Assembly (NCBI GenBank): GCA_963781145.1
Contig: CAWADW010000005.1
Location: forward strand, 504,423-568,422
Direction: 5' to 3'
Origin: an uncultured Pseudomonadota bacterium
GTDB taxonomy: Bacteria; Vulcanimicrobiota; Vulcanimicrobiia; Eremiobacterales; Eremiobacteraceae
DNA: 64,000 nucleotides
Position 1 is the stretch's first letter, and each line of letters starts with the position of its first letter. The position numbers were made by a program, and so were the translations under genes. The notes below the pieces were generated by a model. The model had not been told where the DNA came from. It did no database searches and saw only the letters and a list, made by a program, of their open reading frames with translations. Positions 2,320 to 64,000 of the stretch are shown piece by piece.

Positions 2320-3369
2320 CTACGGGTGAACAGTAGGTGAACCAACCGGAGAAGGACTTTGGATTTCTTTTACATGCATCTGCACGCCGGCAAGCATGTC
2401 GTTCCATGCTCGCGCAAGCGCGGGCTCGAGACTATCAAGAGAGTGTACCCCGCCGCGCTGTTCGTAATAGTGTGCCTCGACACCACTCGAGTTTAAGTAC
2501 GACACTGTGCCTTGGACATACTGGGCGTTGACCAGCGGATCGTCGCTCCCGATCACGAGGAATGCAGGCTTCATTTGCATAGCTCGGACATATGCGTCTT
2601 TATCGTCATTTCTGAGCGACCCGGCCACGCTGAGCACCGCGGCCCACGCCTGCGAGTTTGATGGCGCAAACGCGAAGGCGTTGAACGCTCCCATCGAAAC
2701 CCCGCCAAGGTACGTATGGCGACGATCGATTCGATAGTTTGCTTGTGCGAATGCGAGCGCATCGGCCAGATCGCTCGTGCTGAGAGAGTTGACGGGCGAG
2801 TCGCCGCGCAGCCAGGGCGCTACAATAACCACGCCGCTCGCATCCGCAAGCTTTCGAAGCACGGGCTGAGAAAGCAACTCCGTCTCCGTTTGCTGTAAAC
2901 CGTGAAGCATGACGATCAATGGGGCTGATTTCTCAAAAGCGTAGCTGGGCGGCAAATAGATTGCGAGCGGTTGTAGCGTTTTATCGGAGCTTGAACCCAC
3001 CAAATCCAATCCAGCGCTGCCGGCCTGTTGAAACGCTTGTAGCGCTTTCGTGCTAATCAGCTGGTCGACGAGGTTAGTGTCCAGCGCAACTCGGACGTCG
3101 AGCCGCTCCATTTCGGCCGCATCTGAACGATCGGCCTGCGTCACTTCCGCCTGATCGGAATCCAGTCGCGCGACGATCTGATCCGCAAAACCCGTTTGCG
3201 ACGCAATGCGGGCAAAGTTTGACAAGGCGCGCGCGCGCGCGGCGGAGAGCTGCGCTTGCAGTGCTGCAACGCCGGCGGCGGGCGGATTTGCAGCCGCGCA
3301 CAGGGCCGTGATGGCGATCGCCGCCAAGGCTATTCGAGCGATCCATAATTTCGGCCAGTGTTTTAACAT
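2320..3369 (-). CDS. secreted alpha/beta-hydrolase esterase (PHB-depolymerase/esterase-like)
   Basis: N-terminal signal peptide (MLKHWPKLWIARIALAAIAITALCAA) starting at an internal ATG of ORF 2320..3696. GGVSMGA nucleophile elbow (GxSxG) and LHGLQQTE / VIGSDDPLV blocks. Confidence 0.6.
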   Translation of the reverse strand: MLKHWPKLWIARIALAAIAITALCAAANPPAAGVAALQAQLSAARARALSNFARIASQTGFADQIVARLDSDQAEVTQADRSDAAEMERLDVRVALDTNLVDQLISTKALQAFQQAGSAGLDLVGSSSDKTLQPLAIYLPPSYAFEKSAPLIVMLHGLQQTETELLSQPVLRKLADASGVVIVAPWLRGDSPVNSLSTSDLADALAFAQANYRIDRRHTYLGGVSMGAFNAFAFAPSNSQAWAAVLSVAGSLRNDDKDAYVRAMQMKPAFLVIGSDDPLVNAQYVQGTVSYLNSSGVEAHYYEQRGGVHSLDSLEPALARAWNDMLAGVQMHVKEIQSPSPVGSPTVHP

Positions 3370-9512: not shown

Positions 9513-9812
9513 AACCCCTCACGCGCCGGCAAGACGGTGCATGCCGGCGGTCTTGCCGCAGCCTTGGTGGCCGCGTGCGCATCGTCCTTGTAACGAACGG
9601 GCAGCGAGCGGTGTGACTCGTGCGGCTGCGAACCTGTCCTGCCAACTCGCCCGTTGTGTCGGGACTTTCGTGCCGCAAGAACGTCTGGCGACCGTGTGAA
9701 ATAGGGGAACGTAGCCCAAACCGCGCAAACAAGTCCCCCGGTGCATAGCTACTTCTACGGCGTCGGCTTTAGCCCGTCGCTTGCGCCGCACTCAAGAGCG
9801 AACCCGGCGAGA

Positions 9813-10094
9813 ATGGAAAAACAGACAGTCGTTCCTCAGGTCGCTGACGTCATCTACGTCGACACGCAGCTGTACCTGGGGCGCGGCAAGGACGATTTTT
9901 GCGGCGGTAAGGCGACCGTCACGGCGGTCTCCGCCGGAACCAACCCCTTTATCGAGATCGCTCAGAAACCCGGCATATCGTACAACTGGAAGTACTTGGC
10001 GGACAAGCAGGTAGCGCTCGCGGAGAAGTTCGGCGACGAGTGGGCGCGACCCGATCCAGACGCGCGTCCCGAGTTCAACGAAGACTGGCACTGA
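9813..10094 (+). CDS. hypothetical small protein
   Basis: ORF 9741..10094 with a likely start at MEKQTVVPQ. No recognised domain. Sits immediately upstream of a secreted protein gene. Confidence 0.35.
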   Translation: MEKQTVVPQVADVIYVDTQLYLGRGKDDFCGGKATVTAVSAGTNPFIEIAQKPGISYNWKYLADKQVALAEKFGDEWARPDPDARPEFNEDWH

Positions 10095-10114: not shown

Positions 10115-10933
10115 ATGCGCACTCGTGGTTGGAAATCTCTCGCGATCACCAGCCTGTTGTTGGTCTCGTCGCTGCCCGCGCTCGCGCAACCGGGCGACAT
10201 CTACAATAGCGGGTCCGGTCAAAATCAGAATAGCCAAACGTTCAAGCTTGAGATCTCGCAAGCCGCGGCCGACTTGCATCACGGTCTCGCGATCGAGATC
10301 GAGGCCGAGCGCATCACCTCCGGCGCCGAAGACATTTGGAAACGGTCATCGCCGACGGTCGCGAAATACGAGCCGCCGTGCTACACCTACTACAATTCTT
10401 CGCACAATCTCATTCCCGAGCTCAACGCTGAGTTTCTCGCCCACGACTACGCCGGCGCCAACGAGACCGCGAAAAAGGCTGCCGAATTTCTCAACCAAGC
10501 CGACAAGTGCTCCAACAAACCACAAATCGCTCAAAATAGACCCGACAACCCAGCCTGGGGACCGTACTACGTACCACGCCCGGGCGAAAGCCCACCACAG
10601 GATGCGCAGCCCACTAACAATACGACCGCTGCCGATCCGAACCGGGAACCGCTGCCGCCATCGAAGTCGGCGGGGGGACACCCTTACAAAAAGATTCTGG
10701 GCAAGCCCACATGGCTAACACCCTATTCGACATCCGACGGAACTATCTACCCTTACCGCTTTGACAACGGCGACATCGGTGAGTTTCCAGCATATCATGC
10801 GGGTTATGCACTCAACGGCAGGTTCACGCCGCAACTCAAATACGTTAGTGGCAGCGTGGCCCAGGCGATGGCGCAGTATTACAGTAAAATTGAATATCGA
10901 CTTTACGCAGGCACGCTTATCATCCCGAAGTAG
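10115..10933 (+). CDS. secreted hypothetical protein
   Basis: Start at MRTRGWKSLAITSLLLVSSLPALA (signal peptide), preceded by GGAGG. No recognised domain. GC is lower than the surroundings. Confidence 0.5.
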   Translation: MRTRGWKSLAITSLLLVSSLPALAQPGDIYNSGSGQNQNSQTFKLEISQAAADLHHGLAIEIEAERITSGAEDIWKRSSPTVAKYEPPCYTYYNSSHNLIPELNAEFLAHDYAGANETAKKAAEFLNQADKCSNKPQIAQNRPDNPAWGPYYVPRPGESPPQDAQPTNNTTAADPNREPLPPSKSAGGHPYKKILGKPTWLTPYSTSDGTIYPYRFDNGDIGEFPAYHAGYALNGRFTPQLKYVSGSVAQAMAQYYSKIEYRLYAGTLIIPK

Positions 10934-10982: not shown

Positions 10983-11002
10983 CTTTTTTACACGGTCGCG
11001 AG
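10983..11002. repeat. 20-bp direct repeat, copy 1 (CTTTTTTACACGGTCGCGAG), identical to the secA 3' end
   Basis: Exact 20/20 match to 12232..12251. On the minus strand it encodes ...LATV* like the secA tail. Confidence 0.6.
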
Positions 11003-11021
11003 CGTTCGACCACAAGCCCCA

Positions 11022-12086
11022 CTAGTATGTCAACTGAACCAAGAACTCTCCGCTCCATTTGGTTTCAAGGTTAGCTTGACCCCAGGCGCTCTGTCCGACA
11101 TACATGTCTGTGATTTGCCAGTCTGAAGGGTGTGTATCCATCTTCCCATCGGGAGAGCCCCCACTGATGAGAGCTCTTAGGCGAGGGGCGATGTTAATGC
11201 CATCCATCGTGATCGAGTCCCCTGGATTGAGGAGACTATATCCATAGCTGGTGATGGGGTCGCCAATATCGTACGGATTTGAGCCGTTGCTAAAGTATTC
11301 ACCACGAGTGCCATTGTAACAGCCTGCTCCCGTGTCAGTGCCTGGGTAGCATTCTAAACCGAGTTCCAGTTGGTAAAAAATGGTTTGGCCTGTTCGATAC
11401 GAGCTGAGAATGAGAGACGCTATGACCTGACTTTGATTGACCCCGCATTCAACGCCCGACGTGGGTTGGGATGCTGTCACCACTGTCACGGTTCCTTGGA
11501 AGTTAAGGGCTGTAATCTTTTCTAAAGTAGGAATGCTTCCCGTAGGATAGCCGCTTGCCGACAAAATACCACTTGGGTTTGTCCGGACGAAATTTGTTTG
11601 ATCGTTTGGCTGAAGAAAGAAATCAAACTCTTGGGGGCTTGAGCCGCAGTAAGTTGTTGCGGTTTGACCTAAGGTGGTTGAAGTCCATGCTCCTGTAGCG
11701 GGATTGCTTTGAAAAGACACTGACATTGGATCATAGGCCGTTGCTAAAGTGGATGAGGTGTTTAGTTCCTCAGTCGTCGAAGGATTTGTGATAGTAAAGG
11801 GTTCCCAATTTACTCCGGGCTGCTGACCCCACGATAAGACATTCCAATCAGCTTCAGCGCCCGTTGAATATACGGCTGGATAAGGGGGCTGGGTTTCAAG
11901 GAGAGCAAAGTTGTTTGTGACTTTGAATGGTTCTACAGTACAATTCTTTGTGCAATCCTTTACGGGAGGCGGTGCTGAACTTTCTGATCCGCCGCCACCA
12001 CATGCCGACAGTTGAAAAAGCAAGCATAGGGTTAGAACTTCAGATAATAACAGAGAGAAGCGAACAGCGGCATCCTTCCGGTTCAT
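11022..12086 (-). CDS. hypothetical lipoprotein encoded in a low-GC (about 48%) insert
   Basis: Lipobox LFQLSAC followed by GGGGSES. Ser/Thr/Gly-rich beta-type composition with no known domain. GC is far below the flanks (62-65%). Confidence 0.55.
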   Translation of the reverse strand: MNRKDAAVRFSLLLSEVLTLCLLFQLSACGGGGSESSAPPPVKDCTKNCTVEPFKVTNNFALLETQPPYPAVYSTGAEADWNVLSWGQQPGVNWEPFTITNPSTTEELNTSSTLATAYDPMSVSFQSNPATGAWTSTTLGQTATTYCGSSPQEFDFFLQPNDQTNFVRTNPSGILSASGYPTGSIPTLEKITALNFQGTVTVVTASQPTSGVECGVNQSQVIASLILSSYRTGQTIFYQLELGLECYPGTDTGAGCYNGTRGEYFSNGSNPYDIGDPITSYGYSLLNPGDSITMDGINIAPRLRALISGGSPDGKMDTHPSDWQITDMYVGQSAWGQANLETKWSGEFLVQLTY

Positions 12087-12231
12087 CGGGAAACCTCCGT
12101 AGGGAGCACCACTAGCCGGTCAAGCGGCGCCGTGATAGCGTCGTTGTGTTGAATGCAAAGATGATGTCCAGGCGACGCGGGAAGTTTTCAGCGCCGCGGT
12201 CAAAATCGCTTTCAAAAAGCACGTCGGAAGT

Positions 12232-12251
12232 CTTTTTTACACGGTCGCGAG
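12232..12251. repeat. 20-bp direct repeat, copy 2 (overlaps the secA stop codon and last 4 codons)
   Basis: Identical to 10983..11002. Contains the hairpin CACGGTC-GCGA-GACCGTG. Confidence 0.6.
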
Positions 12252-14909
12252 ACCGTGGCACTTCTTGTATTTCTTGCCAGAACCGCACGGGCAGGGGTCG
12301 TTTCGTCCAACCTTCTTGTCCGCGTGGCGCACCGGTTGTTGCGGCCCCGATGATTCATCGCGATTGGAGCGCAGCCGGTCGAAGCGGCGCAGTGCTGCCG
12401 AATCTGGCTGGGGCATGGTAGAGCTCGGCGTGGGCGCTGGTTGCCCGTCACCCGGTAATGACTGTTGCGGCGGTGGCGGCTGCTGCACGACGATGTGAAA
12501 GTCATCGCCTTGGAACATGCCCGCAAGAAATTCTTCCTGAATCGCAACCTTGAGATCTTCGAAGAGCTCAAACGCTTCTTTTTCGTACTCGACGCGCGGG
12601 TCTTTTTGCCCCCAGCCGCGCAGGCCGATTCCCTGGCGCAGGCTATCCATCGTGTAGAGATGATCGATCCACAAACGATCGATGATCTGCAGCATCGTTG
12701 CGCGTTCGAGGTTGCGGAGTGCCTCGCGTAGGCCCTCCGAATCGAGTTCGGTGTATCGCGCAATCATGCGCTCTTCTTTTGCCGTATACATTGCGTCGGC
12801 TTCGCGTGCCAACAAGTCCACTGCCTCTTCTTTCGACAGCGGCTCTAGTTGCTCGGCGGTCACCCGCTTGCTAATGCCCCTGATGGTTGCTTCCAAGTCC
12901 ACAAGAATCTGCGCGCGATCCCATTCGTGGGGATGCACGTTGTCGGCGCAATTAGCATCCACGGCTTGTTGAGCTTTTTCGCGCAAGATCTCCGTCAAGC
13001 TTGGTCGCAGGTTGTGCCCTTCCAAAACGCGTCTGCGTTCCGCATAGATCACTGCGCGCTGCTTATTCATGACGTCATCGTACTCGAGGACGTGCTTGCG
13101 CTGCTCGTAATTGTGCGCTTCGACTTTCTTTTGCGCGTTCTCGATGCTCTTCGTGAGAATACCGGCCTCGATCGGCGTATCGTCGTCGAGTTTGAACAGC
13201 TCCATCGTCGAGCGAATTCGCTCCCCACCAAAAATGCGCATGAGCTCGTCATCGAGGGCAACGTAGAAACGCGACGAACCTGGGTCTCCTTGTCGGCCCG
13301 AACGCCCGCGCAGTTGATTGTCGATGCGGCGTGACTCGTGGCGCTCGGTACCTAGGATATGCAAACCACCGAGCGTCGTGACGCCCTCACCAAGCTTGAT
13401 GTCGACGCCCCGGCCGGCCATATTCGTGGCGATCGTTACCTTGCCGCGAAGTCCAGCGTCTTTGATGATCTCGGCTTCTTTTTCGTGATACTTCGCGTTG
13501 AGGACGTTGTGCTCGATCCCACGCTTGGAGAGCAGCCCCGAGAGACGCTCTGATTTCTCGATCGAGCGCGTTCCGACGAGCACCGGTTGACCGGCGTTAT
13601 GCCTCTCGACGATCTCGTTGATGACTGCCCGAAACTTGCCTTCTTCATTTTTGTACACGACGTCGTCGTTGTCGGTGCGCCGCACTCCCACGTTGGTGGG
13701 AATCGCAATAACGTCCAACCCATAGATATCGCGGAATTCGCGCTCTTCGGTCTTCGCGGTGCCGGTCATGCCCGCGAGCTTCTTGTAGAGGCGAAAGTAG
13801 TTTTGGAAGGTGATCGTCGCGAGCGTTTGGTCTTCGCTCTTGACTTTGATGCCTTCTTTTGCCTCGATGGCTTGGTGAATACCATCCGAGTAGCGGCGCC
13901 CATACATCAAGCGCCCCGTGAACTCGTCGACGATGATGATCTCGCCGTCTTTGACCACGTACTGCTCGTCTTTGCGGAACAGCTCTTTGGCCTTGAGCGC
14001 GGCTTGCAATTGGTGCGTGAGTTCAAGGTTTGACTGATCGTACAGATTTTGAACGCCGAGGATTTTCTCGACCTTGGCCACGCCAGCTTCGGTGATCGGT
14101 ACCGCGTGCATTTTCTCGTCGACTGTGTAATCTTGTTCTTTGCGCAATTGCGGCATGACGTTTCGTGCAAAGTGTTCGTATAGGTGCGAAGCGTCCTTGT
14201 AATTCGGCCCAAGGACGGCCTCGGGCGAACCGCTGATGATGAGCGGAGTGCGCGCCTCATCAATCAGAATCGAGTCTACTTCGTCAACGATCGCATAGTT
14301 GAGCTCGCGCTGCACGCAGTAGGAAAGATGCGGCGCCATGTTGTCGCGCAAGTAGTCGAAGCCTGCCTCGTTGTTCGTCACGTAAGTGACGTCGCTTGCG
14401 TACGCCGCCCGGCGCTCGGGGGGTGGCATGAAGTGCTGAATGACGCCCACCGATAGGCCAAGGAATCGGTAGATGGGGCCCATCCAGTCGGCGTCTCGTT
14501 TCGCTAGATAGTCGTTGACGGTGACCAGATGCACGCCTTTCCCCAGGAGTGCATTGAGGTACACAGGCAGCGTCGCAACGAGCGTTTTGCCCTCGCCCGT
14601 GCGCATCTCGGCAACTTTGCCATCGTGCAGCACCATGCCACCGATCAGCTGCACGTCAAAGTGGCGCATCGAAAGCGTGCGGCGCGCGGCTTCACGACAA
14701 ACGGCAAACGCCTCGACAAGCAAATCATCGAGGCTTGCGCCGGCGGCAATCCGCTCGCGGAAGAGCACCGTCTTCGCTGCGAGCGCCTCGTCGCTCAGTG
14801 CGATCATGCTGGGCTCGAGCTCGTTGATCTGTACTGCGATCTTGCGCAGGCGGGCGACCTCGCGGTCGTTCCCGTCAACCCACGAGCGTATGTTCTGAAT
14901 CAGGGACAA
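12237..14909 (-). CDS. secA: preprotein translocase ATPase SecA
   Basis: 890 aa. DEAD-like motor motifs, the SecA N-terminus [10 protein letters not shown]... and the C-terminal zinc-binding [14 protein letters not shown]. Confidence 0.95.
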
Positions 14910-34724: not shown

Positions 34725-36588
34725 ATGGCTAAAGTTGTCGGCATTGACCTCGGGACGACCAATTCGGTTGTCGCCTACATGGAAGGCGCGACGCCAACGG
34801 TCATCACGAACGCAGAGGGAAGCCGGCTCACCCCATCCGTTGTTGCGTTCACGAAGAGCGGCGAGCGGCTCGTTGGCCAACTCGCGAAGCGGCAAGCGAT
34901 CACCAATCCCGATCGCACGATTTCGTCGATCAAGCGCTATATGGGGACCGACCACAAGGTGACAATCGACGGCAAAGCCTACACGCCGCAAGAAATTTCT
35001 GCGATGATTCTCCAGAAGCTCGCCGCAGATGCGAGTACCTACCTTGGTGAAAAAGTCACACGAGCCGTGATCACGGTGCCCGCGTACTTCAATGATGCGC
35101 AGCGCCAAGCCACGAAGGATGCCGGCCGCATCGCAGGCCTCGACGTCCTGCGCATCATCAACGAGCCGACGGCTGCCGCGCTCGCGTACGGCCTGGACAA
35201 AAAGGGCAATGAAACGATTTTGGTCTGGGATCTCGGCGGCGGAACCTTCGACGTTTCCATCCTGGAAGTTGGCGACGGTGTTTTCGAAGTTAAATCCACC
35301 AACGGCGACACGCATCTCGGTGGTGACGACTATGACAAGCGCATCGTCGATTGGCTCGTGACCGAATTCAAGAAAGATCAAGCTATCGATCTTGCCAACG
35401 ATCGCCAAGCGTTGCAGCGCCTTACCGAAGCCGCTGAGAAAGCAAAAATCGAACTCTCGTCTATGGTGCAGACCTCCATCAATTTGCCCTTCATCACGGC
35501 AGATCAGAATGGACCGAAGCATCTGGACTATACGCTGACGCGCGCTAAATTCGAACAATTGACGGCGGATCTCACGGAGCGCTGCATCAAACCTTTCGAA
35601 AACGCGATTCGCGATGCCAAACTGTCAGTCGAGGACATAAAAGAGGTCGTCTTGGTCGGCGGTGCAACGCGCATGCCCGTGGTTGTGGAACTGGTCAAGC
35701 GCCTCACCAAGAAAGATCCAAACCAAAGCGTCAATCCCGACGAAGTGGTGGCGGTGGGTGCTGCCATTCAGGCCGGCGTACTCGCAGGCGAAGTCAAAGA
35801 CGTTGTCCTGCTCGACGTTACGCCGCTCACGCTCGGACTTGAGACCCTCGGCGGCGTTCGCACGCCGCTCATCGAGCGCAATACGACGATCCCAACGCGC
35901 AAGTCGCAGACCTTTACCACGGCGGATGACGGTCAAACCTCGGTCGATATCCACGTGCTCCAGGGCGAGCGCGACATGGCGGCCGACAATAAGACGCTCG
36001 GGTCGGTTCAGACTCGAGGGCATTCCCCCGGCACCGCGCGGCGTACCGCAAGTCGAAGTGACGTTCGATATCGACGCGAACGGCATCACGCACGTTGCCG
36101 CGAAAGATCTCGGAACCGGCAAAGAGCAGCGCATCACCATCACGGCATCAAGCAACCTCAACAAAGATGAGGTCGATCGCATGGTCAAAGACGCGCAATC
36201 CCATGCTGATGAGGACAAGCGCAAGCGTGCTGAAGCAGAGATCCGCAACCAGGCGCAAACCCTCGAGTATTCGGTCGAAAGGACGCTCAAAGATCTCGGC
36301 GACAAAGTGCCGGCGTCTGACAAAGCTGACGTCGAGAAAGCGCTCGATAACGTCCGCGCGCTGCTCAAGAGCGGCAGCTCGGACGAACTCAAGCGTGCTG
36401 CCGATCGCCTGCAAGAACTCTCGTATAAGCTCGCGCAAAACGTCTATCAAAGCACGGGGCAGTCGGCCGGTGACGGGCAGCCCAATGGCGCTGCCGGCGA
36501 GCCGCAAGGAGCGCCGAGCGGCGCGACCAGCTCCGGTGGCTCGGGTCCGCAAGGCGATGTCATCGACGCTGAGTATAAAGAAACATAA
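34725..36588 (+). pseudogene. dnaK: molecular chaperone DnaK, interrupted by a single-base insertion near 36003 (probably a sequence error)
   Basis: Full DnaK N-terminus ([17 protein letters not shown]...) runs to ...ADNKTLG. The C-terminus ([28 protein letters not shown]...EYKET*) is in the +1 frame. An extra T follows CTCGGG. Confidence 0.9.
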
Positions 36589-36605
36589 AGGCGCGAGACT
36601 GACGC

Positions 36606-39336: not shown

Positions 39337-41620
39337 TTGGCAATCGCACATACTCTTGGATTTCCCCGCATAGGCCACAAGCGAGAGCTCAAGCGCGCTC
39401 TCGAATCTTATTGGAAAGGCGACATCGGCGCAGACGATCTCAAAGCGGTGGGGCGCCAGCTCCGTAGCCGCCATTGGCAGCTGCAGCGTGATGCCGGCTT
39501 GGACAACGTTGCTGTCGGTGATTTTTCGTTTTACGACCAGATGCTCGACACGAGCGCCATGGTCGGCGCGATCCCCGCGCGTTACGGTTTCTCCGGCGAA
39601 ACCGTCGATTTCGATACATATTTTGCGATGGCACGTGGCTCAGCCGCATCGCCTGCCATGGAAATGACCAAATGGTTCGATACGAACTACCACTATATCG
39701 TTCCCGAGTTTACCCCAGAGATGTCCTTCGCGCTCCGCAGCGCAAAGATGATCGCCCAAACGCGCGAGGCGATCGACGCCGGCTTTGTCCCCAAGCCCGT
39801 GCTCATCGGTCCAGTTACCTATCTGTGGCTTGGCAAAGAGCGCGCGACAAATGGCAAGCCATTCTCGCGCTTGTCGCTTCTCGAGCGCCTGCTCCCCGTG
39901 TACCAAGAAGTGCTGCGGCAGTTGAAAGGCCTTGGCGTTCGCTTGGTTCAGATGGACGAGCCTGCGCTGGTCGCGGACTTGCCCGCTCCCTGGCAACAAG
40001 CGTATCAGAGCGCGTACGAGGTGCTTGGTGCAGCTTCGGTAGACATCTTGCTCGCCACGTACTTCGGTGCCGTTGACGAGCACATCACTTTACTTGGGTC
40101 GCTGCCGGTGGCGGGCATCCATCTGGATCTCGTGCGTTCACCCGAACAACTCGATGCTGTGCTCGGAAGCTGGCGGCCGGGCAGGTCCCTCTCGCTCGGC
40201 GTTGTTGATGGACGCAATGTCTGGCGCACCGATCTTCGGCGCGCGCTCACGCTGCTCGAACGCGCACACGACGTTGTCGACGATGTTTGGGTTGGACCGT
40301 CCTGCAGCCTTATGCACGCCCCGGTCGATCTTACCCTCGAGTCGAAACTCGATGTCGAACTGCGTTCTTGGCTTGCCTTCGCTGTGCAAAAGCTGCACGA
40401 GCTCGCGATCCTCAAACGCGGCGTCGAGCACGGCAGCGAAGCGATCGAAGACGAGCTGCAACTATCGGATATCGTGCAACGCAGCCGCGAACAATCCAAA
40501 CTTATTCACAACAAAGCTGTCGCCGAGCGGGTCGCGCATCTGACCCAAGACGACGAGCGGCGACGCGAGCGATTTTCGGACTCGGCAGCGGCGGCAGCGC
40601 GAACAGCTCAACCTGCCTGCTTTTCCCACGACCACTATCGGAAGCTTCCCACAGACGCCGGCAATTCGCGAAGCGCGAGCCAAGTTCAAGAAAACCGAAC
40701 TTGACGAGAAAGCCTACGAGAAGGCGATGCAAGCGGAGATCGAGCACGCGATTCGCGAGCAGGAAAAACTTGGCATTGACGTCCTCGTTCACGGCGAAGC
40801 TGAACGCAACGACATGGTAGAGTACTTCGGAGAGCAGCTGTCAGGCTTTGCCTTCACGCAACACGGCTGGGTGCAAAGCTATGGTTCGCGCTATGTCAAG
40901 CCGCCGATCATCTACGGGGATGTCGAACGACCGACGCCGATGACCGTTCGCTGGATCGAGTACGCCCAATCCCTGACCGACAAGCCGATGAAGGGGATGC
41001 TCACTGGACCTGTGACTATTTTGCAGTGGTCTTTTGTGCGCGACGATCAGCCCCGTTCGGAAACCGCCACGCAAATCGCTCTGGCCATCCGGGACGAGGT
41101 TCGCGATCTCGAGCACGCCGGCATCCGCATCATTCAAATCGACGAGCCCGCGTTTCGTGAAGGCTTGCCGCTCAAACGCAAAGACTGGAAATCGTACATC
41201 GAATGGGCATCGCGCGTGTTTCGGATTGCCTCCTCGCCGGTGGACGACGCTACTCAGATCCACACCCATATGTGCTACTCGGAGTTTAACGATGTCTTCG
41301 AGGTTTTGGCACTGCTTGACGCCGACGTCATTACGATCGAATCGTCGCGCAGCGGCATGGAGTTGCTCGACGCATTCAAGAAGTTTCGTTATCCAAACGA
41401 AATTGGTCCAGGCGTATACGACATCCACTCGCCGCGCATCCCGAGCTCCGAAGAAATGCACGCTCTCTTAGAGAAGGCCGCAAACTTCCTTTCGCCCGAT
41501 CAACTCTGGGTCAATCCGGATTGTGGTTTGAAGACGCGGCGCTGGGAAGAGGTTTTGCCTGCCTTGCGCAACATGGTCGCCGCGGCGAAGCGCATGCGCG
41601 GAAAAGTTGCGGCGGTTTAA
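39337..41620 (+). pseudogene. metE: cobalamin-independent methionine synthase MetE, frameshifted near 40600 (probably a sequence error)
   Basis: The N-terminal Meth_synt_1 domain runs to ...DSAAAAAR. The C-terminal domain ([19 protein letters not shown]...[13 protein letters not shown]...) is in another frame (ORF 40727..41620). The lesion is one extra base, or 2 missing, within a GCGCG run. Confidence 0.9.
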
Positions 41621-50127: not shown

Positions 50128-50245
50128 GCCGCGCCTTGTATGCCCACAGCGTGAGAAATGGCCATCTGTAACGATTTATTCGCCGCCTGGGGACGCGGCC
50201 CTCGCGGAGTGGGGAACCAGCGCTTGGAATGGCAAAAGGGTTGCT

Positions 50246-51397
50246 ATGGACTTCGACCTCTCGACCGAACAGCAAGACGTCGCGAATCTATGTCGCGAAT
50301 TCGCCGAGGGCGAAATCGCGCCCCACGCCCAAGAATGGGATGCAAAAGCAGAATTTCCGCTTGCCACCGTGCGCAAGATGGGTGAGCTCGGATTTTTGGG
50401 TTTGCCCTTTCCTGAGAAATATGGCGGAGCCGGATGCGGACACCGTTTCGTACGCACTAGCCGTCATGGAAATCGGAAAAGCCGACGCTTCTGTGGGCAT
50501 CACTATGGCAGCGCATGTGTCGCTTGGATCACAGCCCTTCTTTGCATTTGGCAGCGAGGCGCAAAAACAAAAATATCTCGTGCCGCTGGCGCGAGGAGAA
50601 CGCTTGTGGGCATTCGGACTTACCGAAGCACAGGCCGGTTCTGACGCGGGTGCGACGCAGACGACGGCTCAAGTGCACGATGGACGCTGGACGATCAACG
50701 GATCAAAGTGTTTCATCACCAATGCGGGTACGCCGATGACCGGAGGCGTGACGATCACCGCCGTGACGGGGCGCGGTAACGGCCGTTCGGAAATCAGCAA
50801 CATCATCGTCCCTCAAGACATCCCTGGGTACACGCAGGCGGCTCCGTATAAGAAGATGGGTTGGCGCGCATCGGATACGCGCGAACTGTCACTTCGACAA
50901 CGCAGAGGTGCCGGAGGAAAACCTGCTTAGGCGAGCGCGGACGAGGCCTTAAGCAGTTTCTCGAGATTCTCGACGGTGGACGGATCAGCGTCGGTGCACT
51001 TTCCGTGGGTCTCGCGCAAGCCTGTTATGAGGCTGCTGCGAAGTACGCGAAAGAGCGCCATCAATTCGGCCAACCCATTGCGAAGTTCCAGGCCGTGCAG
51101 TTTCAACTCGTCGACATGGCGGTGGAAATCGAACTCGCGCGCTCTGCCGTGCTCAAAGCAGCGTGGCTCAAAGACCAAGGGCGTGATTTCGCCACCGCGG
51201 CGGCAATGGCGAAGCTTTTTTCGGGCGAGGTCTCTCGGCGCTGCGCGAATGCCGCGGTGCAGATTCACGGCGGTTACGGGTTTATGGACGAGTATCCCGT
51301 GTCGCGTTACTGGCGCGACTGCAAGATCAACGAGATCGGCGAGGGCACAAACGAAGTGCAGCGCATGGTGATCGCGCGCCAACTCGGTCTGTCGTGA
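50246..51397 (+). pseudogene. acyl-CoA dehydrogenase interrupted by three +1 indels (about 50432, 50893, 50930)
   Basis: MDFDLSTEQQDV...EKYGGAG | ADTVSYALAVMEIGK...DTRELS | FDNAEVPEENLL | GERGRGLKQF...EGTNEVQRMVIARQLGLS*. The protein continues through three frames. Confidence 0.8.
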
Positions 51398-52711: not shown

Positions 52712-55700
52712 TTACAGTTTTGTGGACAAACTGAACACGTACGTGCGTACCGGAATCGCTCCACCACCAGCTAGTGCAGCAGAGGCGCCGACGTACGGGA
52801 AGTAGTCATCGCCGTAGTAGGCGTTCGCTGGGTTAGCCGATTTCGCAGCGAAAGCGCCCATCCCAAGCGGCGACAATGCGTAGAACGGATTGTCTGCGTA
52901 GGAGATGATACCCTGACTCGCCGGCTGCTCCCAAGCATAGCCTTGATTGTGAACACCCCAGAGGAGGTTCGTTCCTAGGATCGATGCTTTCAGGTTGTGG
53001 CCGATGTCGTGAGAGATGCCCAAGTTGAGCGCCCACCACGACGGCCCTTTGAAGGCGCCTGGGGCATCGAATTGGCTTGTGTATGGATCTGGCCCCAGCG
53101 CACCCGGCAATGGGGCTGTGCAAGGACTGATCGTGCCGTGCTCGCAGGTAGCGGGCAACGGAGTGCAGCCGGGTGCATTGCCCCCAACCCCGGGCGGGCC
53201 AGCAGCAAAGCAGTGCGCGTCTGAGAAGAGTTGCGGGTCTCCGTACGGGTTGCCGGATTGATAGTTCAACGTCGGTAGAATATCAAATCCATGCTCCCGC
53301 ACATCGAGCCCCACGTTGAGTCACGAATCGCACATCGTACGACGGCGATGCTGGCACCGCCTGATCGTAAGATGGCGAGTAGTACGCGTTCGGATCGAGC
53401 GTCGCGAAGTGTGTGCCGTAGTAGTTGTTGTAGGCGGAGATCTGGCTATTAATTGTGTCGATGTACGATGCTCCGCTCGGACCCTTCCAGAACCTGATCT
53501 TGGAATTGGTGTAGGTCGCGGCTATCACGCCCCCAATGCCGTTCTCACTGGACACATTCTTGCTCAGTAAGAACTCGGCTCCCGAAACGCGCGCATTGCC
53601 GAAGTTGTATCCGGTAACGAAGCTCGGCGATGCGGGATTCACGGGCAAGTTAAGGATCTGGTTTTGCGTATCTCTATAGAACGGCGTGATCTTCATGGAC
53701 AAGCCAGCTGAAAAGTCGTGCTCGACCGATAAGTCGTAGTTCGTGCTGTTTTCGGGTTGCACGTTGTGAACCGTCAAGAACCCCAGGCCATCGTAGAATC
53801 GATTCAGCAGTTGAACCGTGTCGCCCGGTCCCCAGAACGGGGCTTCCCGGTACTCTACGAACGCAGAGTCCGGAGGCTGAACGTAGCGTCCAACTGAGAA
53901 CCGAAGGATGTTGGTTGGATCAAACGTGTACGTGAAGCCGAATCGTGGGCTTATCGCCTCATACGAGATGGAGGTCGGCGGATTGCTCCACCCCCCTGCT
54001 CCCGGTGCATCTTTTGCGCTCAAACCCACGCCGCCAGGATCAGTCCCCGGGGGACTGTTTGGCGTGCTCCCGTTGGTGAGGATCGAGAAGCAGTTCGTTC
54101 CCGCTGGATAGCCGGGGATACTCGGATCGCCTGGCGAGTATGCGAAACCATGCAGGCACTGCCCGTTTTGTTCTTCAGCCATGTATGCTAGACCGTTGAG
54201 ACCGGTGATCTGCATATCGGGCATCAGCACGAAACGGAACTCATCCCAACGCGCTCCGAAGTCGAACAACAGCTTGTCGCTGGGTTTGAACTGGTCGTCG
54301 ATGACACCATCGTAGGTTATAGGCGTCGTGCTCGACCAATATCCGAACGGCGAGCCTACGTAGGTGACGGGGCTGTCCCGCCGTGCATGCCATGCCCACA
54401 CCTCCGCAATTGGGGTGCGTTCCCCAAAAGTTGAATGCCGGCTGGTAATTGTAGCGCAGCGTCAAGTCGCGCGTCCAGTCGGTGTCGATCTTCAGAAGGT
54501 TCTGCGCGTTGAGCTGGTTTTGGTAGTTGAGCGTGACCCCTGTCGCGTTGTCGTGCAGTTGGTAGAATGTGAAACCGACCCAGCCGTTGATTGGCTGGTC
54601 GAGGCTCCAACCCGAAAACAAGTTGTACTCGTACAGGCGCAAGAACGAATTGTCGTTCAGAGCTCGAGTGTAGGACAGCTTTGTAATCGAGTACTGCGTA
54701 TTTTGGCTGTCTTGGAATGTTGGCGGGATCGGGCCGCCAAGGCTGCCACCGGACGTTGGCCAGGTGAGCGGCGTGAGCAGCGCTGGGTTGTATGGTTGCC
54801 CAGCGTTGCCTTTGTAGAACAGACCCGTCGGCCACGTGAGATTCGTCGCCGATTGAAACCGGTGTTGCTCGTGAAGGTCGACACGGTTGGGTCCGAATTG
54901 AATGTGCCTTCTGGGGCATACGGAGCCGACTGGGTCGAACCGACCACATACAGTGCTTGCAGGTCGTCGCTCAGACCATTGTGCTGGAGCGTCCAGTGCA
55001 GATTCGTCACGGTGTCGCGTTGTGCGGTCCACGGAATGTCCGAATACGCGGCCAATGACTGCGGCTGCATCAGGGAGTTGGCCACCGAGCAGTTGAGGAA
55101 ACCGCCGCCTGGCGTTAACCCTGGAATCGTAGAACCAAAGACGTCGTGAGAATTCCAGGCGCCGCAACCAGGATCGTTCGCCGGAACACTGATCGCGGTT
55201 CCCGCCAGGTTGCTCCGGTCGCCGAAGTTGTAGTCGGCGTTCAAAGCCAACGTCGAGACGTAGTAGGTAAACCGATTGTCCGGTGTGCCACCGTAGATGT
55301 CCGCTTGGACTGAGTGGTTGAAGAGCGGTGAGCCGACGATGCCCGTAAAGTCAGCACCGCCTGGATATTTTCCACGCGAAACGACTTCGTTGACATAGCC
55401 GGACATGGCGCGACCCGCATCTGCCGGAGCGCCGCCGGTGTAGACTTCCAAGCTCGAAAGGCCATTCGTCAAACCTGCTGTGGAATTGTAAAAGTCAAAT
55501 CCGCGGTTAAGCGGAATGCCTTCAAGTTCGAATCCGATTTGGTCGAACGAACCGCCGCGCATGGAGAGCGAACCCTGGCCTGCGTAGCCACCGCCCGATC
55601 CAACTTGCCGCACAACGCCCGGCATCGAGCCGACAACGCCGTTTTGGCTATACATCGTCTCTGAGCCGCCTTGCGAACCTTGCAAGTTGGCGATGGCGCG

Positions 55701-56123
55701 CGAGTTGACGGCATAGAGGTCGCCCGTCACCGTCTTACTCACGACGCTCGCAGTTGCAGTGGTCGTAACGTGGCCGATGGTCTTGATGGATTGCCGCATG
55801 TGGATATCTGCGGAGGCTGTTTGGTCAGCCGTAACTGTGATGCCGTAGATGGTTGCGGTGTCGTAACCGTCTTTGCTCCCAGTTATGCTGTAGGTGTCCG
55901 GAGAGAGGTTGAGGATCGAATAGAAACCATTCGACCCGGTCGTTGAACTTTGCGATTGGCTGGGTGACGAAGCCGTCACCTTAGTGCCAGTTAGTGGGTT
56001 GCCATTTTGATCCGTCACCTTGCCCTGAATGTTGCCAGTCGTGCCGGCCAGTGCCCATGTTCCCTGGACGAGCAAAACCGCGACCGTCAGAAGCGCGGTG
56101 CGGAGTAGGCCCTTAGTGGTCAT
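52712..56123 (-). pseudogene. TonB-dependent receptor with N-terminal carboxypeptidase-regulatory-like domain, split by at least 3 frameshifts
   Basis: Strong RBS AAGGAGG + ATG at 56123. Signal peptide, a CarboxypepD_reg-like segment (GNIQGKVTDQNGNPLTGTKVTA...GFYSILNLSPDTYSITGSKDGY), plug and beta-barrel segments spread over ORFs 54657..56198, 54241..55167, 53283..54401 and 52712..53314. Confidence 0.7.
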
Positions 56124-56311
56124 CAAGGGTTTCCTCCTTAAGTGAGTGAGAATGCTTAACCGACGAACCAGCCACTGCGGTCGGCCGAGCCGATGCACGC
56201 GCCGTCGTCCCGATTAAGGTGAGTTTAAGGTTCGAACGGTGACTTCGCACACCTGCTCGCAGCGCGTCTTGCGGGACGGATAAGGGCGACAGCGGACCTA
56301 AAGGTCCGCTG

Positions 56312-61510: not shown

Positions 61511-62456
61511 GAGAAAAATACTCGAGCATATCTGCCAAAGTGCGTTCAATTGGCGTGACGGCCCTCCAGCCCACCTGTCGCTCTATTAATGAGGGGTCGC
61601 CGCGTAGCACGGGCGTTTCTACGGGCCTCACGAGCTCGGGCTTGCGCCGAACCTCAGCTTTGACGCAGGCGATGCGCATCAACTCGCGGACGATCTCCTC
61701 CATGCTCCGATCCTTGCCGCTGCACACGTTATAGACGCAGCCGGTTTCACCAGCTTGCACTAGCCGCAGATATGCATCGACAACATCGCGGACATCGGAA
61801 AAATCGCGTCGTGGCGTGAGATCGCCAACGTCGAGCACGGGTTCTTTCTGCTTCGCCTTGATGGCCGCAATCTGGCTCGCAAACGCGGGGACGGCAAAGG
61901 CCGAACTTTGACCCGGGCCTGTGTGATTGAAAGATCTTGTTGCCATGACGCGACACCAACCGGCGCGCGCGTACTGCAGCGCAATGACCTCGGCCGCGGC
62001 CTTCGACGCGGCATACGGGTTTCGGGGAGAGATCGGAGCATCTTCGCGCAACGGCAGTTGGTCGACGCTTACCGCGCCGTACGTGTCGGACGAGCCCACG
62101 ACGAGCACGGTCGCCTTGGAAGCTTCGGCGCGAACGGCTTCGAGTAAGAACGTCGTCCCCATGACATTCGTTTCGATAGTCGAGAGTGGGTGATCCTGAC
62201 TGGCCGGCACGAAGGATTGCGCGGCCAAGTGAAAGACAACATCCGGTGCGCACGAGCGCGCGAGCGATCGCAGCCCATGTGCATCGGCGATGTCACACGT
62301 GCGCCATACGACGCGCTGCGCGAGCGTTGCGTCAAGCGTCACCAGCGCAGGTTTGGGAGCGCGAATTAAGCCTGTGACCTGCGCATTGTCGCGCAGCAGT
62401 CTACGGAGCAGCCACTGCCCGACAAAGCCGTCGGCACCAGTGACAAGCGCATGCAT
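61497..62456 (-). CDS. rmd: GDP-4-dehydro-6-deoxy-D-mannose reductase (Rmd-like NAD-dependent epimerase/dehydratase)
   Basis: GxxGxxG (VTGADGFVGQWL), YxxxK (YAASKAAAE), FNHTGPGQ; overall collinear with Pseudomonas Rmd. Adjacent to gmd. Confidence 0.75.
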   Translation of the reverse strand: MHALVTGADGFVGQWLLRRLLRDNAQVTGLIRAPKPALVTLDATLAQRVVWRTCDIADAHGLRSLARSCAPDVVFHLAAQSFVPASQDHPLSTIETNVMGTTFLLEAVRAEASKATVLVVGSSDTYGAVSVDQLPLREDAPISPRNPYAASKAAAEVIALQYARAGWCRVMATRSFNHTGPGQSSAFAVPAFASQIAAIKAKQKEPVLDVGDLTPRRDFSDVRDVVDAYLRLVQAGETGCVYNVCSGKDRSMEEIVRELMRIACVKAEVRRKPELVRPVETPVLRGDPSLIERQVGWRAVTPIERTLADMLEYFSHAAA

Positions 62457-64000
62457 TAGGCAGTGTTTCGTCGATGTCGCTCGAGGTCGGCCTCGACCAT
62501 CTTTCCTATCATGTCCTCAAAACCGACGGTTGGCGCCCAACCAAGTTTGTGCTTCGCCTTCGAAGCGTCGCCGACGAGCACGTCAACCTCGGCTGGGCGA
62601 ATGAACTTCGGATCCGGCACGACGTGTGTGCGCCAATCGAGGCCCACGCATTGAAAAGCGACTTCGACAAGCTCGCGCACGGTGCGCGTCACACCTGTGG
62701 CGATCACGTAGTCGTCCGGCCGCTCTTGCTGCAGCATAAGCCACATGGCCCGCACATAGTCGGGCGCATAGCCCCAATCGCGTCGCGCGTCGAGGTTGCC
62801 CATGTGTACGTCCTTGGCTTTGCCGAGCTTGATGCGCGCAGCCGCATCGGTGATCTTGCGAGTCACAAACTCCAAACCTCGCCGCGGTGAATTGTGAATG
62901 ACCCACTCGCCCACGCCGGCATGAAATCGCCCAGAGGTGGTGGTGAGATCGTAGAGCCATCCATCATAATCAGGGAGCGGAACAACCTTTTTGACCTCAG
63001 CGCGGTCGCGCCGAAGATGCGCGCCCTTGCCTGTGATCATCGGCGTCCGAAGGTTGATGGAATAAAAGGGACCCGGTCTTTCCCGCGGGCCTATATCGAG
63101 GTTGAGGACTGGCTCTTGGCCGAGTGCTTTGCTTGCGAGCCACCAAAGCCCCATGGCAAGAACGGGAGAATTCGTTTTGAAATTCTTAAAAGGATACCGT
63201 GGGCTGCCAGCCTTGAGGCCATCGGTCGCGTTGTATCCTTCGAGGAAGTGAACCCATGTTTGCTCGTCGCCATTCAAAACTATGGTGGGCACCCGTTTGT
63301 GACCGCTGTGCGTGTAGCACATCTCGTGCAGCCACGACGTAAAAGCGGCGTTGCCGTTGAGCGCCAGCGCCCCAACGGTTGCGCCGATATGAAATCCTGA
63401 GGCGGTGGCACTTTCGGTAGCCCAACCACAAGCGACCTGACGCCATACTTCCTCGAACCGCCGGCGGAGGGCGACGTCGTTGTTGGTAAATCTGGCCGCC
63501 ACGCGCCCGCCGGACATATAAGCAGAGCCATCACCAACAAACGCGCCGAGAAGCCATGCGAGTTCAGGTCTGATTTTGGTGACGTTTGGGGAGCACGGCA
63601 GGGAGGCTTGCAGGACACGATCGCCAGGGGCAACCAGCGCCGCCGGGCGCTCGTCTTGCGCCAGGAACACGACATGATCCGCCGTTGTGGTGATCGTTCC
63701 ACAACGGGCTTCGATTCTTGTGACCCCCTTATTGCGTTTCAAAGGAGCATGATGGTAGGCAGTTCCCTGCAGCACGTCAACAAATCGCTCGCCATCCCAC
63801 ACTTCGAGATCTTCCACGTCAAAGCGCTGGTAGGCGGGTCCTTTCGGGCGAGCATGAAGAACTTCGTCGATGGAAACGACATCGATGAGGCCGCGCCGTC
63901 GAATGATGACGGGTGTACGGCCTGGGATGCTTTCGTGGTTAAACAGGATTCCGGAGCACGCAAACAAGCCGTAGGACTCGCGATAGTTGACCGTGATCCA
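62456..64000 (-). CDS. gmd: GDP-mannose 4,6-dehydratase, intein-containing, 5' end beyond the window
   Basis: Extein N-part ...[23 protein letters not shown], then a 347-aa insert, then [14 protein letters not shown]...[22 protein letters not shown]. The extein segments are collinear with E. coli Gmd (...NHESPRRGETFVTRKIT...). Confidence 0.85.
62891..63931 (-). mobile_element. intein (347 aa) with LAGLIDADG homing-endonuclease domain, inserted between NHE and SPRRG of Gmd
   Basis: Ser1 ([10 protein letters not shown] = block A), block [13 protein letters not shown] (TxxH), LAGLIDADG motifs [15 protein letters not shown] and [12 protein letters not shown], block [17 protein letters not shown], terminal VIHN followed by a +1 Ser. 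Confidence 0.8.

Follow-up and report, generated by a model that had tools for sequence, protein, structure and literature searches.

A second copy of the secA gene end beside a laterally exchanged lipoprotein gene in Eremiobacterota: evidence favouring a recombination scar over an integrating cassette

This study examined a stretch of 64,000 nt of DNA (64 kb, here called the window) in which a perfect 20-nt direct repeat brackets an AT-rich lipoprotein gene next to secA. The secA gene, which begins with a TTG start codon, encodes a genuine SecA protein (890 aa) that carries the SEC-C zinc motif at its C-terminus, and the relatives of this protein put the window in Eremiobacterota, with L082 as the sister genome (SecA 98.7% identical in amino acids and about 92.6% in nucleotides). 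Read in the secA sense, the locus runs from secA through x1, E1 (34 nt), the B unit (a 115-nt upstream region, the ORF and its TAG), n2 (19 nt), x2 and n1 (20 nt) to the 3' flank of A and to A itself, which points back towards secA. The B unit extends over about 11021-12200. The features are as follows, where x1, x2 and x3 are the copies of the secA tail.

9683..9704, plus strand: x3, third copy of the secA tail, degenerate (19/22) and inverted
9813..10094, plus strand: small ORF of 93 aa directly upstream of A, species-specific
10115..10933, plus strand: A, secreted-protein gene with no known domain, convergent with secA and found in the hotspot of L082 and L103
10963..10982, no strand: n1, 20 nt between x2 and the 3' flank of A, origin not traced, with no other copy in the window or the fetched loci
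10983..11002, minus strand: x2, ectopic copy of the secA tail, whose first 5 nt on this strand, CTCGC, are 10998-11002 (GCGAG on the plus strand)
11003..11021, minus strand: n2, remnant of B's own 3' flank, whose last 7 nt with the first 5 nt of x2 make tcgaacgCTCGC
11022..12086, minus strand: B, AT-rich lipoprotein gene of 354 aa with a signal peptide and an LSAC lipobox
12087..12192, minus strand: native 5' region of the B unit with RBS and probable promoter, common with L104/L105 up to about 12200 and with L082 no further than about 12139
12193..12200, minus strand: the 8-nt microhomology ACCGCGGC of the upstream joint, common to the native secA-downstream sequence (L001 as proxy) and the B-upstream sequence (L104 as proxy)
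12198..12231, minus strand: E1, native secA-downstream element of 34 nt, homologous to the post-secA sequence of L001, L082 and L084
12232..12251, minus strand: x1, resident secA tail and right copy of the 20-mer (last 4 codons, stop and AAAAG)
12237..14909, minus strand: secA, the conserved anchor gene
12240..12257, minus strand: hairpin over the last secA codons with a 7-bp stem and a 4-nt loop (CACGGTC-TCGC-GACCGTG)

The 20-mer CTTTTTTACACGGTCGCGAG was matched perfectly at 10983-11002 (x2) and 12232-12251 (x1) in the 64-kb window, which confirms at 20 of 20 positions the identical flanking repeats reported in the first-pass annotation. That annotation had also placed the right copy over the last four secA codons with their stop, and it did so correctly, since x1 reads CTC GCG ACC GTG TAA plus AAAAG on the minus strand, the ...LATV* end of SecA. 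Dinucleotide-preserving shuffles yielded a mean of 0.02 matches to the 20-mer, even with up to 3 mismatches, and at 20 nt it is the longest direct repeat around B, against a maximum of 12 in shuffled flank pairs. A chance origin of the pair is thereby ruled out.

A third copy, x3, was absent from the first-pass annotation. It matches the 20-mer at 17 of 20 positions (9685-9704), or at 19 of 22 when two extra bases are counted. All three copies lie within 2.6 kb. Placed 110 nt upstream of the small ORF and then A, and co-oriented with both, x3 mirrors the placement of x1 towards B, and x2 and x3 therefore form an imperfect inverted pair around a module of the small ORF and A. Its flanks have no similarity to secA or E1, and its orientation is identical in all five contigs that cover it.

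No further copy of the 20-mer was found in the 64 kb, and a degenerate pattern of it, run against viral and metagenome collections, recovered only the secA end of L082 and, by chance, matches within other genes such as glyA and groEL. These scans rule out a generic genomic repeat, which the first-pass annotation had named as fatal to its reading. An assembly artefact is ruled out as well, since two Logan contigs from other samples (L107 and L108, 99.9% identity) carry x2 and x3 in the same arrangement, L107 with one SNP inside x2; this polymorphism also indicates that x2 is unconstrained. All three copies are likewise present in a separate assembly, L081, 99.1% identical to the window. A longer, decayed duplication was considered and rejected, as x1, x2 and x3 show no significant similarity among their flanks, and so was a secA pseudogene remnant upstream of x2 or x3, where similarity never extends beyond 2-6 nt.

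The sequence that follows secA was compared with that of the relatives. The 38 nt after x1 resemble the E1 of these relatives with p=0.002 in an anchored test against random 38-mers of the window, whereas the same test on the flanks of x2 and x3 gave p=0.29 and 0.92. In L001, L082 and L084, E1 comes directly after the secA tail (pairwise p<0.001), contiguous with an x-like sequence in L084; these three genomes have no duplication of the tail, and unrelated genes come after E1 in each. Past the A-run, the secA-downstream sequences of L002 and L103 are unlike E1. As judged from these alignments, secA-x1-E1 is evidently the native arrangement. Among 77 other secA loci, fetched with 10 kb on each side, none had a second copy of its own secA tail, and the divergence profile of secA against L082 has no visible recombination breakpoint.

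The hairpin over the last secA codons is only partly contained in the repeat, as x1 holds its 3' arm and loop alone. The copies x2 and x3 are without the 5' arm and fold no better than shuffled sequence, and an Rfam search returned no match. In L002 the hairpin is retained through a compensatory pair.

Gene B, the cargo between the repeats, encodes a protein whose signal peptide ends in ...LLFQLSAC-GGGG; read in the translation, this fits the bacterial lipoprotein pattern [LVI][ASTVI][GAS]C, and the lipobox is present in most homologs. With 49.0% GC, B falls 4.6 sd below the mean, and no other 1065-nt segment of the 64 kb is lower. The AT-richness described in the first-pass annotation (roughly 48% GC) therefore stands, but its 62-65% background does not, as the window has 58.5% GC; nor is gene A GC-poor, as had also been stated, with 56.7%. 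The low GC is a family trait of B, at 0.49-0.56 against 0.56-0.62 in the flanks in all six contexts.

No Pfam or NCBIfam family matched B, and its AlphaFold model is poor (mean pLDDT 52), with weak GH11/GH12 jelly-roll matches alone. A profile search extended the family to 259 representatives, whose multidomain members combine the B domain with modules of the CE2_N, ricin-B lectin, Big_7, chitobiase C-terminal or peptidoglycan-binding type. A role in binding or cleaving glycans at the cell surface is a reasonable guess.

The synonymous divergence of B sets it apart from its neighbours. Against L082, dS is 0.04 for B and 0.10 for A, compared with 0.32-0.37 for the core genes secA, hpf, pda, lytR and yajQ; when the L084 and L001 genomes are compared, B gives 0.25-0.38 and core genes give 1.2-2.0. 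Within any one pair of genomes, B lies 5-9 times below the core genes, and its synonymous sites are free to change, as indicated by a dS of 1.2 between B and its homolog in L092.

The close homologs of B, only 23 in number, stand in unrelated contexts in other Eremiobacterota: beside large HTH_28/29/32 proteins in L086, beside an NB-ARC regulator and multicopper oxidases in L092, and 240 kb from secA in L085 (the L001 genome). Among six B contexts, homology is confined to a stretch that begins at the RBS and includes a single base beyond the stop codon, and in the five contexts other than the window no direct or inverted repeats above chance were found around B. From the dS below core and the differing contexts, we conclude that B is a laterally exchanged accessory gene, and the lateral acquisition proposed in the first-pass annotation is upheld.

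The gene is also a mosaic, with 900 nt at its 3' side 99% identical to L082 and 100 nt at its 5' side about 14% different. The 115 nt upstream of B match the L104/L105 allele and are absent from L082. The 99%-identical tract seems to stem from a later, independent gene conversion that stayed within the ORF.

The region in which B lies is itself variable. A lytR-pda-hpf-secA block is syntenic in L001, L002, L082, L084 and L103, and just downstream of secA the gene content shifts in these genomes, with A and/or B recurring there. In L082 the order is A ->, B ->, <- 306 aa, <- 187 aa, <- secA, so that A and B are adjacent and co-oriented, B is opposite relative to secA as compared with the window, and the secA-tail sequence is single. 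In L084 the order is B ->, CMD ->, <- 163 aa, <- secA, and L103 has A ->, five small genes and then secA, without B. Beyond the variable region, a conserved block with a release factor, UDG and a radical SAM gene is present in L082 and L103, and the first 857 nt of the window match the L082 gene adjoining this block.

With this block on the far side and secA on the other, the 7-11 kb between them make up a small hotspot. Its cargo consists mostly of genes for secreted proteins of unknown function, as judged from the signal peptides that several products show. A further gene of the hotspot has opposite orientations in L001 and L082 which, together with the flip of B, indicates that inversions are frequent there. 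The empty site expected in the first-pass annotation, with secA followed directly by the cytochrome c region, was seen in no relative. A gene-exchange hotspot of this Eremiobacterota lineage is the best explanation for the stretch from secA to A.

Both ends of the B unit could be read against proxies. At the upstream joint, L001-like native sequence ..AGCGACCGCGGCC switches to L104-like B-upstream sequence ..CACCGCGGCGCAGAAAAC inside the 8-nt microhomology, where the L104 type reads ...CACCGCGGCGCAGAAAACTTCCCGCG... At the downstream joint, the window reads TAG...tcgaacgCTCGC|gaccgtgtaaaaaag, with gaccgtg directly after tcgaacgCTCGC. The corresponding stretch downstream of B in L082 is tcggacgCTCGC|cggtcat, located 22-34 nt after the B stop, and 11 of 12 positions agree with the window (empirical p=0.004). 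In the secA tail the sequence is ggtCTCGC|gaccgtg. The first five bases of x2, CTCGC, are therefore common to B's 3' flank and the secA tail. These microhomologies are read from the diverged proxies L001, L104 and L082, which are not the true parents. Microhomology at both joints is a signature of illegitimate, not site-specific, recombination.

Taken together, the evidence supports a repeat that is real and specific and a gene inside it that was laterally exchanged, and a scar in the hotspot beside secA fits it better than a dedicated integrating cassette does. That x2 is the scar of illegitimate, homology-facilitated recombination (HFIR) in the hotspot downstream of secA, and not an att core, is in our judgement about evenly poised between true and false. 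In such an event, two versions of the hotspot would have met, namely H1 with the order secA-x-E1-B-(B flank ...acgCTCGC...) and H2 with the order secA-x-n1-<-A. The B unit would have been joined to the native x1-E1 at the 8-nt ACCGCGGC, and x2 would be the truncated 3' tail of a second secA end, either resident or imported from a related strain with a secA-tail-n1-A hotspot, which would have been fused to B's 3' flank at the 5-nt CTCGC.

One crossover could have been anchored in the highly conserved secA, while the other end would have been joined at microhomology inside the last codons of the other allele. A Campbell-type route, in which a circle closed at CTCGC is inserted, would be formally equivalent, and either route would leave an intact secA, E1, B and a leftover 20-nt tail. 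The 5' boundary of the repeat would then be the joint, and its 3' boundary the point after the A-run where E1 and n1 diverge.

The involvement of two hotspot haplotypes, their donor and resident roles and the choice of RecA-anchored HFIR over other microhomology pathways are parts of this account that we infer. As x-E1 is present in the sister lineage, x1-E1 may well belong to the resident haplotype. The inverted copy x3 may have been left by a similar event at an earlier time and then been inverted. Several observations count against the scar: neither predicted parental haplotype (secA-x-E1-B with an intact B flank, or secA-x-n1-A) was among the loci fetched, n1 has no match, the proxies are diverged, secA has no breakpoint against L082, and x3 is left unexplained. 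In addition, insertion by an integrase would classically leave the same trace, a 20-bp direct repeat restoring the 3' end of a gene.

The features of other elements were sought at the same boundaries. The features of HFIR are present, with microhomology at the novel joints (against the proxies) and a conserved anchor on one side of added DNA of other ancestry. Those of a transposon or MITE are not, as the longest inverted match of the flanks is 9 nt, at chance level, no transposase was found in the scanned ORFs, and 20 bp is outside the usual range of target-site duplications. An integron cassette is not indicated either, with no attC after the ORF, no attI nearby and no intI in the Pfam scans.

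A rearrangement within a single lineage could also have produced the repeat, and we consider this unlikely, but the least so of the other explanations. In it, microhomology-mediated template switching would have taken place while a break was being repaired or replication restarted: the end of B's 3' flank would have annealed at CTCGC on the nearby secA tail, been extended by a further 15 bases copied from there and switched once more, which would make x2, and perhaps x3, short copied patches. The sharp 20-nt boundaries without flank similarity, the start exactly at CTCGC and a template that lies in a hairpin about 1.2 kb away are in keeping with such copying, as are the orientation of B, opposite relative to secA to that in L082 and L084, and the existence of the inverted degenerate copy x3.

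However, 20-nt templated patches are, to our knowledge, poorly documented in bacteria, and no template for n1, n2 or n3 was found elsewhere. The differences of x3 at 3 of 20 positions mean that it does not stem from the same recent event. Moreover, B's upstream region of about 115 nt is of the L104 type and missing in L082, which makes an in-place inversion of an L082-like arrangement unlikely.

The site-specific integration at the 3' end of secA proposed in the first-pass annotation would here involve a small integrase-less cassette E1-B-n2, whose attP core is the last 20 nt of the secA region and which was inserted by a recombinase acting in trans, the core being duplicated as attL and attR. 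We regard this as improbable. Its appeal is that identical repeats stand at both ends, with 20 of 20 matches and x1 covering and rebuilding the stop codon of a conserved gene, that x1 lies within a 7-4-7 inverted repeat and so in a candidate core site for a recombinase, that a third related copy is nearby, and that the cargo is AT-rich and laterally exchanged.

An att site or a target-site duplication, however, calls for element DNA at the proximal repeat and for the native flank at the distal one. Here it is E1, native to the region downstream of secA, that adjoins x1, and the flank of x2 is not E1-like. Since the native flank stays with the proximal copy and is not displaced, a simple att site or target-site duplication does not fit, and integration in trans would be possible only if E1 were borne by the element and all its other traces had decayed. 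The B flank of L082, too, has just CTCGC of the core and then diverges, which fits microhomology and not a 20-bp attP.

The first-pass annotation had noted that no integrase lies between the repeats, and this holds well beyond them: no integrase, transposase or invertase domain was found in 56 large ORFs scanned across the 64-kb window. Neither recurrent attB use nor an attP or an empty site was found among the 77 secA loci or in the pattern scans of the viral and metagenome collections. With native E1 at x1, microhomology at the joints, no recombinase in the scanned ORFs, no recurrence and no repeats flanking B elsewhere, an att-like event at the secA end is not supported.

A bolder form of the same idea takes the hairpin with its 20-nt flank as the target of a putative trans-acting recombinase, which would insert, and sometimes invert, integrase-less single-gene modules for secreted proteins. 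The copies x1, x2 and x3 would then be the boundaries of two modules, B and the small ORF with A, in a new cassette system of Eremiobacterota. We hold this to be highly doubtful; if true, it would be a new kind of trans-mobilised single-gene cassette.

The least credible explanation, that the copies are a regulatory or structural element of about 20 nt (a protein-binding site or an RNA 3'-end element) of which three copies are under selection, could draw on their clustering, on the location of x1 and x3 110-150 nt upstream of co-oriented secreted-protein genes and on the compensatory pair in L002, but the gene after x2 is convergent and x2 itself varies in L107, x2 and x3 have neither the hairpin's 5' arm nor a position conserved in L082, no other copy exists in the 64 kb or outside secA ends in public collections, and Rfam gave no match. 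A search for intrinsic terminators or promoters as an explanation of the motif gave nothing above background.

With the recombination scar as the favoured reading, the locus shows cleanly how, in nature, a gene for a surface protein can be exchanged laterally and stitched beside an essential, highly conserved gene without mobile-element machinery, here in an uncultured phylum, Eremiobacterota, and a fossil gene tail marks the joint. For annotation it carries a caution, as a direct repeat that rebuilds the 3' end of a gene is insufficient for calling an att site. The two cases can be told apart by which flank stays with which repeat and by microhomology at the junctions.

Among known systems, integron cassettes resemble the B unit in being single-gene units, with a conserved part from RBS to stop codon, but no attC-like conserved or foldable site follows B in any context, and intI, attI and the GTTRRRY core are missing. 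Tyrosine integrases insert att-flanked islets and cis-mobilisable elements (CIMEs) at the 3' end of a tRNA or protein gene; there, too, the 3' end and stop are restored by a direct repeat of about 20 bp, and the cargo has an atypical composition. Unlike in these, no integrase occurs here in the scanned ORFs, the native flank stays at the proximal repeat, the site is not reused in 77 related and unrelated secA loci, and B moves without repeats elsewhere.

Chromosomal integration hotspots between core genes are reportedly known from comparative genomics, such as the 2017 work of Oliveira and colleagues. The stretch downstream of secA is like them in its conserved blocks on both sides, its variable and mostly secreted accessory genes in between and its alleles younger than the core genome; it differs in being very small (7-11 kb), in having no mobile-element genes and in being documented in only about five genomes.

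The closest comparison for the favoured reading is with HFIR, which was described in the transformation of Acinetobacter baylyi, Streptococcus pneumoniae and Pseudomonas stutzeri and usually deletes some recipient DNA. The present case differs in that the event is deduced from sequence alone, its parents not being recovered, and in that 20 nt from the gene end of the other allele were kept. Its likeness to HFIR lies in foreign DNA beside a conserved anchor, in GC-rich microhomology joints of 5 and 8 nt and in needing neither a dedicated recombinase nor dedicated end sequences. Both joints fall within the 3-10 bp established experimentally for HFIR (PMC6382021). On the favoured reading, the locus adds one more case to a kind of event already known, and a fairly ordinary one.

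The 3' end of secA in the window carries two features, namely a hairpin formed by the last codons of the gene and a conserved noncoding element (E1) immediately downstream, and the secA tail is also present as a degenerate third copy (x3), in addition to the resident tail (x1, 12232-12251) and its perfect ectopic copy (x2, 10983-11002).

9683-9704, inverted: x3, matching the secA tail at 19/22 positions, GTCTGGCGACCGTGTGAAATAG
12198-12231: E1, conserved noncoding element (also L001, 12686-12725; L082, about 13230-13270, minus strand; L084, about 2900-2940, minus strand)
12240-12257: hairpin of the last secA codons, 7-bp stem and 4-nt loop, CACGGTC-TCGC-GACCGTG

In another Eremiobacterota locus, L002 (about 12672-12690), the stem at the secA end is retained as ACGGCC/GGCCGT through a compensatory change of T-A to C-G, and it is kept even though the terminal peptide reads LATV in the window and LTAV in L002. 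E1, with a consensus of about GAYWTCCGMCCGGGCATTNTGGGACAGCG, lies directly 3' of secA in several Eremiobacterota, independent of the identity of the next gene; in L084, where the secA stop comes earlier, the A-run and E1 are located 5 nt past that stop. A comparison of E1 with Rfam gave no match.

The x3 copy is intergenic, with cytochrome c on one side and a small ORF (9813-10094, plus strand) on the other, and it was found in all five of the contigs examined from other samples. Together, x2 and x3 form an imperfect inverted pair flanking the module of the small ORF and the secreted-protein gene (10115-10933, plus strand).

The AT-rich lipoprotein gene between x2 and x1 (11022-12086, minus strand) is a mosaic, as revealed by comparing 11021-12200 with the sister genome (L082) and L104: 11021-11920 is 99% identical to the sister genome, 12021-12120 diverges from it by ~14%, and for the upstream segment 12111-12200 the L104 allele is the closest. 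Members of this gene family have exchanged signal-peptide regions, carrying either a lipobox or a plain signal peptide. At least 259 representatives make up the family defined by the lipoprotein's uncharacterised domain of roughly 300 aa, a family without a Pfam model; longer proteins, distant relatives of the lipoprotein (P0051, P0119, P0120, P0148, P0150, and P0163), combine this domain with modules that bind carbohydrate or the cell wall. In L086, from another Eremiobacterota genome, a homolog with 78% identity adjoins two proteins with transposase-like domains.

L086 3029-5347 and 6958-9288, mutually opposite orientations: proteins of 772/776 aa with HTH_28/29/32 domains

Elsewhere in the window, dnaK (34725-36600) and metE (39337-41620) each seem to be interrupted by a frameshift: from about 36052 the C-terminus of DnaK resumes in a different frame, and MetE breaks at about 40650-40730. 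These splits are either indel errors of long-read assembly or pseudogenes. A separate assembly, 99.1% identical to the window (L081), has many comparable breaks, with SecA in three pieces. Further ORFs appear truncated (50229-50930, 53283-56198, and 62456-63967). An acyl-CoA dehydrogenase ORF of truncated appearance has only N-terminal and middle domains, a TonB-dependent receptor is in two parts (CarboxypepD_reg and barrel), and the GDP-mannose dehydratase match of a 503-aa ORF is confined to its C-terminal third.

Downstream of secA, L001 (12901-14016) and L082 (11252-12172) carry a homologous gene of 306/371 aa (86% amino acid identity), which runs in the same direction as secA in L082 and convergently with it in L001. 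This flip is a further inversion within the secA-adjacent hotspot.
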